In this document: one piece after another, positions 21,282 to 23,056 of the stretch
Layout: the number at the start of each line of letters is the position of its first letter
Position numbering within the stretch: the stretch's first letter is position 1
From: Promethearchaeota archaeon
GTDB lineage: Archaea > Asgardarchaeota > Thorarchaeia > Thorarchaeales > Thorarchaeaceae
Reading direction: 5' to 3'
NCBI GenBank assembly: GCA_027031765.1
Contig: JALVPN010000216.1
Location: forward strand, 1-23,065
Length of the DNA: 23,065 bases
Notes under the pieces: generated by a model
Database searches by the model: none
The model's input: only the letters and a program-made list of their open reading frames with translations
What the model was told of the DNA's origin: nothing
Program-made: the position numbers and the translations under genes

Positions 21282-22430
21282 CTAGTGGCCCGACTGCACG
21301 CTGGCAGCAATGGCGCGTGCAGCCCTGAGGTAGACGTCAACGGACTGCATGAGCTGTCGGATGCTGATGTACTCGTCTGGCCGGTGCGCCTGTTCAATCG
21401 ACCCCGGCCCACAGATCACGTTCAGTATCCCCCCTTTTGGCTGGAGGACGCTGCAGTCAGTGCCGTAGGGCGCAGCCTGGAGGGGCGGGCACTCACCAGT
21501 GACCGAACGGACGGCCTCCGTGGTCACACGCACAATCTCAGTGTCTGGGGGAGTCTGCACCGCCCGCTTGCCATGTACGTACTCGACACGCACCCGGTCA
21601 GAGAAACCAGCGTCTGCAATGCGCTCACGCATCATCCTGAGGACCGACTCTGCGGACTGACCGGGCACCAGACGCATGTCGATGTATGCCTCGCACTGGT
21701 CTGGTACGACATTTACCTTCACACCGCCTCTGATTAGGCCGATGGACACCGTGGGCAGGCCAAAGCTGGGTACGGGCTCGTAGGGGTACTGTTCCCCAGT
21801 GAGGACACGGAGGGCCTCCATGCACAGTCCGATTGCGTTGACCCCGTCTTCGGGTCGGGACGCGTGAGCAGCCTTGCCGCTGGCAACGACACGCGACCAC
21901 AGCATCCCCTTCTCGCCCAGGAGGACCGCAAGACCCGTGGGCTCCGCACAGATGCCGTAGCGCACCCCTGAGAGCAGGCCGCTGGCAACAACGGCCTCGG
22001 CCCCTGAACACCCGCTCTCTTCGTCAGATGTTGCGAGCATCAGGAGCGGTACCCCGTGGCCCTCAGAAGCATAGATGACCATGGCCTCGGCAAGCGCAGA
22101 CAGCGGGCCCTTCATGTCGCAGGCACCGCGCCCGTACACACGTCCCCCGACGACCTCCCCACTAAATGGGTCGTGTCCCCACTGGTCTGTAGGACCGGCT
22201 GGCACTGTGTCCATGTGCCCGTGGAGTACGAGTGGGCCTGACACCTCGTCGCCCGTTGAGAATATGAGGCTCGGTCGCTCACGGGGCCCGACCGACCAAC
22301 AGGTCATGCCGTAGTCGGCCATGTGTTCCCTGAGGATGTCCGCAACCTCGGCCTCCCTGCCTGGCGGGTTCTCAGAATTAGTGGAGACCAGTGTGCGCAG
22401 CAGGGAAAGCACCCTTGACTCGTCTACCAT
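21282..22430 (-). CDS. M20 family metallopeptidase (ArgE/DapE-like deacylase), about 382 aa
   Basis: SENPPG.E, HGHMDTVP, GRGACDMKG, DEESG, EPT, HASRP..GVNA, GG.KVNVVPD, TD, GPGSIEQAHRPDEY. Start is ATG 22430 or GTG 22439. Confidence 0.93.
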   Translation of the reverse strand: MVDESRVLSLLRTLVSTNSENPPGREAEVADILREHMADYGMTCWSVGPRERPSLIFSTGDEVSGPLVLHGHMDTVPAGPTDQWGHDPFSGEVVGGRVYGRGACDMKGPLSALAEAMVIYASEGHGVPLLMLATSDEESGCSGAEAVVASGLLSGVRYGICAEPTGLAVLLGEKGMLWSRVVASGKAAHASRPEDGVNAIGLCMEALRVLTGEQYPYEPVPSFGLPTVSIGLIRGGVKVNVVPDQCEAYIDMRLVPGQSAESVLRMMRERIADAGFSDRVRVEYVHGKRAVQTPPDTEIVRVTTEAVRSVTGECPPLQAAPYGTDCSVLQPKGGILNVICGPGSIEQAHRPDEYISIRQLMQSVDVYLRAARAIAASVQSGH

Positions 22431-22530
22431 GTATGCCACGACCCGACGGGTCTGGGGCGTCCGGTGTTCTAAAGTGTTGTCACTATGTTGTTAGTCGTCC
22501 AAGCACGCGACACGACCGCTACCGTGCGCA

Positions 22531-22538
22531 CTTATTAG
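22531..22538 (+). promoter_or_regulatory. TATA-like box (CTTATTAG) of putative C/D sRNA
   Basis: Ends 22-23 nt before the first base of the terminal stem (22561), the expected archaeal spacing. No plus-strand CDS follows. Confidence 0.5.
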
Positions 22539-22560
22539 GACTGCAGCACCACTCACTCAT

Positions 22561-22629
22561 GCAGACCGATGAGGCAGTTACCCCTGACTGAGCACTGCGA
22601 TGACGAGCCAAGAGCAGGCTGAGGTCTGC
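22561..22629 (+). ncRNA. Candidate box C/D 2'-O-methylation guide sRNA
   Basis: Terminal stem GCAGACC (22561-67) / GGTCTGC (22623-29). Box C-like CCGATGA (22566-72). Box D' CTGA (22584-87, or 22588-91). Box C' GCGATGA (22597-603). Box D CTGA (22619-22). Guides are 11 or 15 nt and 15 nt. Intergenic, with a TATA box upstream. Confidence 0.65.
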
Positions 22630-22737
22630 CATGGGCGGCGCCACCACTGGTGTTAGGGGCTGGCGGTGGCACCCACCATCAACTGGACTCCGAGACAACA
22701 CCGGCCCCTCAGCCCACCCGGACAGGGCCGGGGCAAT

Positions 22738-22766
22738 AGAAAAAGGGGGGCCATCCCTTCAAGGCC
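22738..22766 (-). terminator. Putative terminator of 22779-22967 gene
   Basis: On the minus strand a GGGCC..GGCCC hairpin is followed by CCTTTTTCT, 12 nt after the stop codon. Confidence 0.45.
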
Positions 22767-22778
22767 CTAGAGGACAGC

Positions 22779-22967
22779 TCAAGCACGGGCATCCCGACTG
22801 TCCGACCCCTCGTCAACGAGGACTATGCCGTTCTTGTTCAGTGTGGCCTTGAAGGAATGGCCGGACTCTAGTTCGACACGCACCTCGCCCCCCGCCAAGA
22901 AGTCCTTGACTCGTTCCTTGAGGTCCGTACAATGGATATCGTCCAAATCCAGGACACGATTGCTCAT
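22779..22967 (-). CDS. Small hypothetical protein, 62 aa
   Basis: MSNRVLDLDDIHCTDLKERVKDFLAGGEVRVELESGHSFKATLNKNGIVLVDEG reads as a folded alpha/beta protein. GAGGT lies upstream, a possible TATA box is at 23057-23064, and a terminator-like signal lies downstream. Confidence 0.6.
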   Translation of the reverse strand: MSNRVLDLDDIHCTDLKERVKDFLAGGEVRVELESGHSFKATLNKNGIVLVDEGSDSRDARA

Positions 22968-23056
22968 CTTGGTCTCGACCTCTTGTCGGATGGGGGAGGT
23001 GGCGCGGCGACTGAAAGGAGTGCACAAGACAGATGTTCTTATCTGTTGTCGTGGCG

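Follow-up and report, generated by a model that had tools for sequence, protein, structure and literature searches.

Does the intergenic gap next to the M20-family peptidase gene of this contig hold a gene for a guide RNA and, if so, which nucleotides would that RNA modify? In the window, that is the whole stretch of 23,065 nucleotides that was analysed, the gap covers 22440-22778 and measures 339 nt, in line with the original prediction of about 340 nt devoid of a credible ORF. No Pfam match was found for the three ORFs that overlap it, nor for the 82-aa ORF that follows it. Within the gap lies a 69-nt element (22561-22629, plus strand) closed by a 7-bp terminal stem, GCAGACC/GGTCTGC, which is extendable as had been described, and in which GAUGA- and CUGA-type boxes succeed one another in the order C, D', C', D. 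Its fold has an energy of -25.7 kcal/mol (z = -2.3). The element is very probably a stand-alone box C/D sRNA gene of Thorarchaeota, with its own TATA-type promoter, whose product is predicted to guide methylation of G2446 and C2510 in 23S rRNA. The gene is unannotated and is a new, class-wide example of a well-known kind of RNA. The features of the locus, with the box registers retained here, are the following.

21282-22439, minus strand: M20-family peptidase gene, left flank of the gap
22531-22538, plus strand: TATA-like box CTTATTAG, which precedes the first base of the terminal stem by about 24-27 nt
22561-22567, plus strand: GCAGACC, 5' strand of the terminal stem; one bulge allows its extension to 22558
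22569-22575, plus strand: box C, AUGAGGC, register chosen by conservation
22576-22587, plus strand: D' guide of 12 nt, AGUUACCCCUGA, with C22583 at position 5, predicted to lie opposite G2446
22588-22591, plus strand: box D', CUGA, with an invariant GA
22592-22598, plus strand: short internal hairpin made of GC, a loop and GC, by which the C'/D' k-turn is closed
22600-22606, plus strand: box C', AUGACGA, preceded by the bulge base G22599, with A-U-G-A invariant
22607-22618, plus strand: D guide of 12 nt, GCCAAGAGCAGG, with G22614 at position 5, predicted to lie opposite C2510
22619-22622, plus strand: box D, CUGA, in homologues mostly CUGA and rarely CCGA, CAGA or CGGA
22623-22629, plus strand: GGUCUGC, 3' strand of the terminal stem, which can be lengthened to 22633
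22779-23027, minus strand: small ORF, right flank of the gap, 82 aa long if it starts at TTG, about 61 aa if at an internal ATG

Some of these registers differ from those first read from the single sequence. Box D' had been placed at 22584, with a methylated A in the target. In 42 aligned homologues, the CTGA at this position is not conserved and reads CTGT, CTAT, CTGG or CTAA, whereas the GA of 22588-22591 is invariant behind two variable bases (CU, CC, CA, CG, AU). Variable first two bases are usual for box D'. Since the invariant GA belongs to 22588 and not to 22584, box D' was moved to 22588; both spacers are then exactly 12 nt, against 11 and 15 nt in the earlier register, and the methylation predicted for the D' guide falls on a G rather than on the A. 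The first register of box C (CCGAUGA) had to be abandoned as well, only its final UGA (22570-22572) being invariant in the 42 homologues, while the preceding GA (22568-22569) varies between GA, UA, UG and AA. The register of the D guide and its position-5 C were upheld.

In the corrected registers, a terminal C/D kink-turn is predicted from the stem, a 3-nt bulge (G22568-A-U22570) and tandem sheared G-A/A-G pairs that start from G22571-A22572 and face the GA of 22621-22622. Box C reads AUGAGGC and differs from the consensus RUGAUGA in two places, positions 5 and 7. Its GGC is matched at box D by U, C and G; of these pairs, G74-C19 is preserved in 22/22 sequences and C75-G18 in 19/22. The internal C'/D' motif comes in the right order with spacers of about 12 nt, and its mini-stem (G-C / C-G of 22592-22598) is invariant in 22/22 sequences, with homologue loops of 3-8 nt. 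In archaeal C/D RNAs, spacers are limited to about 12 nt with a recognition window of 10 nt (PMC7229835). It was comparative alignment that corrected the C/D box registers; registers taken from one sequence can err by 3-4 nt and this alters the predicted target.

A strict C/D descriptor, which required a stem of at least 5 bp, an N-R-U bulge, GA and two spacers of 11-13 nt, gave a single match (22561-22629) across both strands of the 2.95-Mb genome and none in the reversed genome, which argues that the element is real and not due to chance. With a relaxed descriptor, 17 genome matches were obtained versus 3 decoy matches. Two other C/D sRNA candidates with GAUGA / CUGA-type boxes were seen in the same genome, one at C40:159736-159809 (plus strand, 7-bp stem), about 90 nt after a tRNA-Gly(CCC) gene, and one at C124:8105-8180 (plus strand, 6-bp stem).

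The element is widely conserved. BLAST recovered the core (22567-22631) in about 20 family genomes, with 77-91% identity, and a covariance model (R1), built from 22 copies of the element, found it in 71 of the 87 genomes of the class, in 23/24 high-quality genomes and in 16/17 genera. Box conservation in relatives had been put forward as a check, and the kink-turn GA dinucleotides proved invariant in 42 homologues. Terminal stems differ in sequence while their pairing stays, four out of four counted pairs changing on both sides in alignment A1. This covariation was assessed by per-sequence duplex energies and manual pair counts: 91.5% of the stem cells are paired versus 22-41% with the partner column slid, and the mean energy of the arm duplex is -9.2 within the same genome, -6.8 between different genomes and -4.4 after shuffling. 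RNAalifold on a MAFFT alignment recovered only the 2-bp internal stem, because indels shift the terminal stems out of register. Descriptor, conservation and stem covariation agree with the proposal of an archaeal dual-guide box C/D sRNA gene. The Asgard origin of the host was borne out too: when public genomes were scanned with an exact pattern, 40 records matched, most of them titled Thorarchaeota, the other titles being a few Promethearchaeota, 'uncultured archaeon' and 'archaeon', and one Hermodarchaeota.

The sRNA was found in none of the seven genomes of genus g4 (G003, G018, G028, G106-G109; completeness 52-96%), in which the 16S and 23S target sequences equal those elsewhere in the family. 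In many relatives, a small minus-strand gene resembling the ORF at 22779-23027 adjoins the sRNA, which suggests that the synteny of the two is conserved. A small conserved ORF beside the sRNA in relatives is flanked by the 10-mer GGCTGARACC, as an inverted pair 190-240 nt apart; examples lie downstream of the sRNA at L048:1601 and 1788 and at L044:1286 and 1473, and the 10-mer is absent from the window. It has 42 matches in 90 kb of loci versus 0.7 expected, some of which are the box D and stem of the sRNA itself.

In Rfam, no family reaches its gathering threshold on the element. A scan of 400 nt gave 12 sub-threshold matches, nine of them to C/D-type families; all those overlapping the element and all those of at least 16.7 bits are C/D families, and the three weak matches of other types sit downstream (22656-22777). 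The element scores 29 bits with RF00213 (snoR38), 23 with RF01149 (sR10) and 21.4 with RF00095 (snoPyro_CD), for a threshold of 45. It would work like the RNAs of these three families, yet it belongs to no curated Rfam family.

A stand-alone gene with its own TATA-like promoter had also been proposed, and the position of the box is kept in relatives, an A/T-rich box being observed at a fixed upstream distance in homologues (for instance TTTCATAAGG, CTGATAAGAGG and ACTTTTAGGAG). By its location, which is that of an archaeal TATA box, CTTATTAG at 22531-22538 is a putative promoter from which the sRNA would be transcribed. No oligo-T run follows the 3' stem of the element in this GC-rich genome; a T-run occurs there in many AT-rich relatives. 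Among sequencing runs, the locus turned up in a single DNA one, probably the source sample (a hydrothermal vent metagenome), and in no RNA run.

The genome encodes the protein partners of such RNAs. Nop5 (PF01798) and fibrillarin (PF01269) genes stand side by side on contig C217, and two genes of the L7Ae family (PF01248) are located on C40. The RNA would fold into two kink-turns, a terminal C/D one on the 7-bp stem and an internal C'/D' one on the 2-bp hairpin, each of which would bind L7Ae and then Nop5 and fibrillarin. Both 12-nt spacers would pair in antisense with their targets, and the target nucleotide opposite the fifth guide base, counted upstream from D' or D, would receive the ribose 2'-O-methyl group. 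In E. coli numbering, the D' guide is expected to direct this modification to 23S G2446 and the D guide to C2510, two nucleotides of domain V that would be separated by 64 nt within its peptidyl-transferase region.

The D' guide pairs through positions 2-11 with 10/10 nucleotides of CAGGGGUAAC in the 23S rRNA of relatives. Its target, CAGGGGUAACAGAGU, is identical in 24/24 family genomes with a contiguous site, and shuffled D' guides reached 10/10 in 48 of 5000 trials (about 1%). The nucleotides opposite position 5 of both guides were numbered by aligning the 23S with that of E. coli, known landmark positions serving as a check. For the D guide, no target had been recognised in the original prediction. 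It fits 23S C2510: nine of the ten bases at positions 2-11 are complementary to CGGCUCUUGG, the exception being an A-G mismatch at position 3, and guide and target covary. In the complete 23S of four relatives, the target stretch UCGGCUCUUGGU occurs 64 nt downstream of the D' target. Positions 4-11 pair in all 31 genomes for which both guide and 23S are available, and the match ranges from 8 to 10 of 10 in relatives. Given that 13% of shuffled D guides reach 9/10 somewhere in rRNA, the assignment to C2510 rests on location and covariation. Compensatory changes were observed in genus g10 (G009, G023), where guide position 11 went from C to U and 23S G2516 to A, and in the sister family f2 (G037), where guide position 10 went from C to G and G2515 to C. 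The D guide of G004 matches its own 23S at 10/10. In another Asgard class (G179, G188), GAGCCG is present at D-guide positions 7-2 and matches the universally conserved CGGCUC; the 23S D-target site itself was not found in these two assemblies. The mismatched A of position 3 is kept in nearly all Thorarchaeota, and positions 1-2 vary freely. Another site for the D guide, at 23S position ~1978 (CCUGCUCUGUGC), is matched in G019 and in the 23S of this genome, and was rejected because G014, G030 and G033 have no match there.

Complementarity between guides and rRNA was thus found on the 23S of relatives. The 23S of the genome itself is split between C103:1-2164 and C143:31282-31686, and the part around 2160-2673, with both predicted targets, is missing from the assembly; it presumably carries the same target sequences as in relatives. 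The 16S is split too, between the end of C48 and the start of C110. Whole-genome pairing scans with 15-nt guides yielded only coding-DNA matches resembling chance, and contained no rRNA target because of the missing 23S segment. Among the tRNAs (24 genes, ARAGORN), no guide target of at least 10 nt was found. When vent-metagenome contigs were compared with the 23S target region of a relative, many short ones of mixed organisms were obtained, none assignable to this genome.

In 10 of 34 family genomes, 23S similarity breaks 1-3 nt from A2451, inside the D' target (loci L212-L221; G001, G004, G007, G011, G012, G023, G036, G066, G068, G092). Upstream of the breaks, two kinds of unrelated sequence of at least 100 nt were seen, and the breaks are probably due to an intervening sequence (intron) in the peptidyl-transferase loop. 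In these genomes, such an intron would leave the full D' target visible to the guide only after splicing.

The sRNA also has paralogues. Tandem second copies are present at L007:1614-1695 and L035:1378-1459, with about 125 nt between copies in some genomes, and paralogous sRNAs, including those at L114-L117, mix guide modules. Type b combines the G2446 guide with a D guide, CGGUGAGCAG, that matches GUGCUCACCG in the A-loop region of 23S, with position 5 at about U2555. Type c joins the D guide of type b to a different D' guide.

Three other readings of the locus were weighed against a dual-guide sRNA. According to one of them, boxes and stem would have come together by chance in a non-coding spacer, or would belong to an adjacent gene, as a piece of its promoter or 5' leader. 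The lack of RNA runs carrying the locus and the scores below every Rfam gathering threshold are compatible with it. Against it, both neighbouring genes lie on the opposite strand, the descriptor found one match versus none in the decoy, and the element recurs in 71 of the 87 genomes of the class, with kink-turn bases that do not vary, stems that covary and a fixed spacer length of 12 nt. This reading is scarcely credible and is already contradicted by the conservation data. According to another, the C/D RNP forms and the D' guide alone methylates, the D guide being mainly a second anchor or a folding chaperone that holds strands of the peptidyl-transferase loop together during 50S assembly. 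Such a role would suit the almost invariant though unpaired A at D-guide position 3, two bases away from the target nucleotide and next to the freely varying positions 1-2, and two target sites merely 64 nt apart. Moreover, closely linked double targets are known in archaeal sRNAs (PMC7994747), and extra pairing is described as aiding methylation by eukaryotic snoRNAs (PMC3116282). Nevertheless, an unbroken run of eight Watson-Crick pairs (D-guide positions 4-11) surrounds the position-5 nucleotide, the C2510 site has fully matched guides in G004 and in another Asgard class, sR7 of Methanopyrus kandleri is predicted to methylate the same C2510 and, judged by spacing, eukaryotes methylate its equivalent under the guidance of U49. 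It is hence doubtful that the D' guide acts alone, even if the D guide may be weakened or may be mainly an anchor.

The last reading concerns 16S rRNA. The original prediction had likened the D' target to a helix-11 sequence, and the D' target could be, or could also include, the loop of helix 11 (GGGGUAAYUGCC, positions 257-268 in E. coli), in which a D' box at 22588 would direct the modification to the second G (E. coli G258). The complementarity itself is real. Nucleotides 22573-22584 are complementary at 12/12 to 16S GGGGUAACUGCC in G014, G019 and several other relatives, and the 16S of this genome reads GGGGUAAUUGCC, which leaves one G-U pair. The variable guide position 12 pairs with the 16S of the same genome in 21 of 31 genomes, above chance, and matched changes of guide and 16S were seen in three genomes (guide A and 16S U in G032 and G031, guide G and 16S C in G093). 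Box C positions 5-7, UGA in G037 and G179, have become GGC or AGC in family f1, which lengthens the complementarity to helix 11. The match is, however, not a canonical one. The three pairing bases GGC are these same box C positions and are engaged in the kink-turn, guide positions 2 and 3 are mismatched to helix 11 in every genome, and the invariant U of guide position 3 is explained by 23S A2444 and not by 16S. Uncompensated mismatches to helix 11 occur in G026, G035, G009, G013, G033, G064 and G065. The D' box at 22584, which the earlier version of this reading needs, is not conserved, and to our knowledge no methylation is known at this helix-11 site. In the 10-nt window (PMC7229835), helix 11 pairs only at positions 4-11, that is 8/10. 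Helix 11 is therefore held to be an unlikely target, and the corresponding reading is kept as a minor rival with helix 11 as a possible second substrate.

With the dual-guide reading, a well-supported, class-wide C/D sRNA family and its covariance model are added to the guide RNAs of Asgard archaea, for which no paper cataloguing C/D sRNAs was found in the literature searched. The ribose methylations of G2446 and C2510 (human Gm4362 and Cm4426) would be specified in Thorarchaeota as well. The target pair is not new, as it was already predicted for a distant archaeon, M. kandleri; the fact that sR7 specifies the same pair makes the two sites look ancient and not specific to eukaryotes. A bolder view, in which this RNA is by descent the archaeal forerunner of snR38/SNORD1 and U49/SNORD49, with both guides on one RNA, and in which the D' guide of Thorarchaeaceae is bifunctional towards 23S and 16S helix 11, is quite improbable. 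If the bifunctional part of it were true, the change of box C from UGA to GGC would give up to 12 nt of helix-11 complementarity and one guide would serve both ribosomal subunits.

Among the closest known archaeal guide RNAs is sR7 of M. kandleri (PMC4644070, supplementary files 1 and 2), a dual guide with the same target pair in the same guide order. As parsed here, its published sequence has a D' guide, GGUAAUCCCCGG (followed by CCGA), with position 5 opposite G2446, and a D guide, CGGAGAGCCGG (followed by CGGA), with position 5 opposite C2510. In the alignment of Dennis et al. 2015 (PMC4644070), the block of E. coli 2430-2520 bears the label K7 twice; the main text of that article mentions neither G2446 nor C2510. 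sR7 differs from the present RNA in that it comes from a euryarchaeal hyperthermophile of a different phylum and has other boxes and another stem, an 11-nt D spacer and no position-3 mismatch in its D guide. Ignicoccus hospitalis sR414 (PMC4644070) carries almost the same guide for G2446, AGUUAUCCCCGG, and has its second target in the same 100-nt block; its G2446 guide nevertheless stands before box D and not D', and the partner guide is directed near 2498-2501 and not to C2510. More generally, the element resembles archaeal C/D sRNAs (PMC7994747, PMC7229835) in its size (69-76 nt), its two kink-turn motifs, its 12-nt spacers and the position-5 rule, as well as in targets that cluster around the peptidyl-transferase centre. 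It departs from them by its box C, AUGAGGC where RUGAUGA is usual, and by a C'/D' motif whose own 2-bp stem makes it a kink-turn and not a bare k-loop.

In eukaryotes, snR38, SNORD1A-C and plant snoR38 (RF00213) have the same target nucleotide as the D' guide, yeast 25S Gm2815 (snR38) being human Gm4362 and Arabidopsis Gm2805 (PMC8817022). When aligned to the element, the snoR38 consensus of Rfam covers the D' guide, and its position 5 falls on the same G. These RNAs are, however, longer and bound by Nop56/Nop58, and use this one guide for the site. Human Cm4426 is located 64 nt from Gm4362, and Plasmodium falciparum 3240 is 64 nt from 3176 (PMC2656528, PMC8817022). The same spacing in an indel-free region points to C2510 as the Cm4426 site of human U49/SNORD49, the human 28S having been compared by spacing alone. 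While U49 is a separate snoRNA in eukaryotes, its counterpart here would be the second guide on the same RNA.
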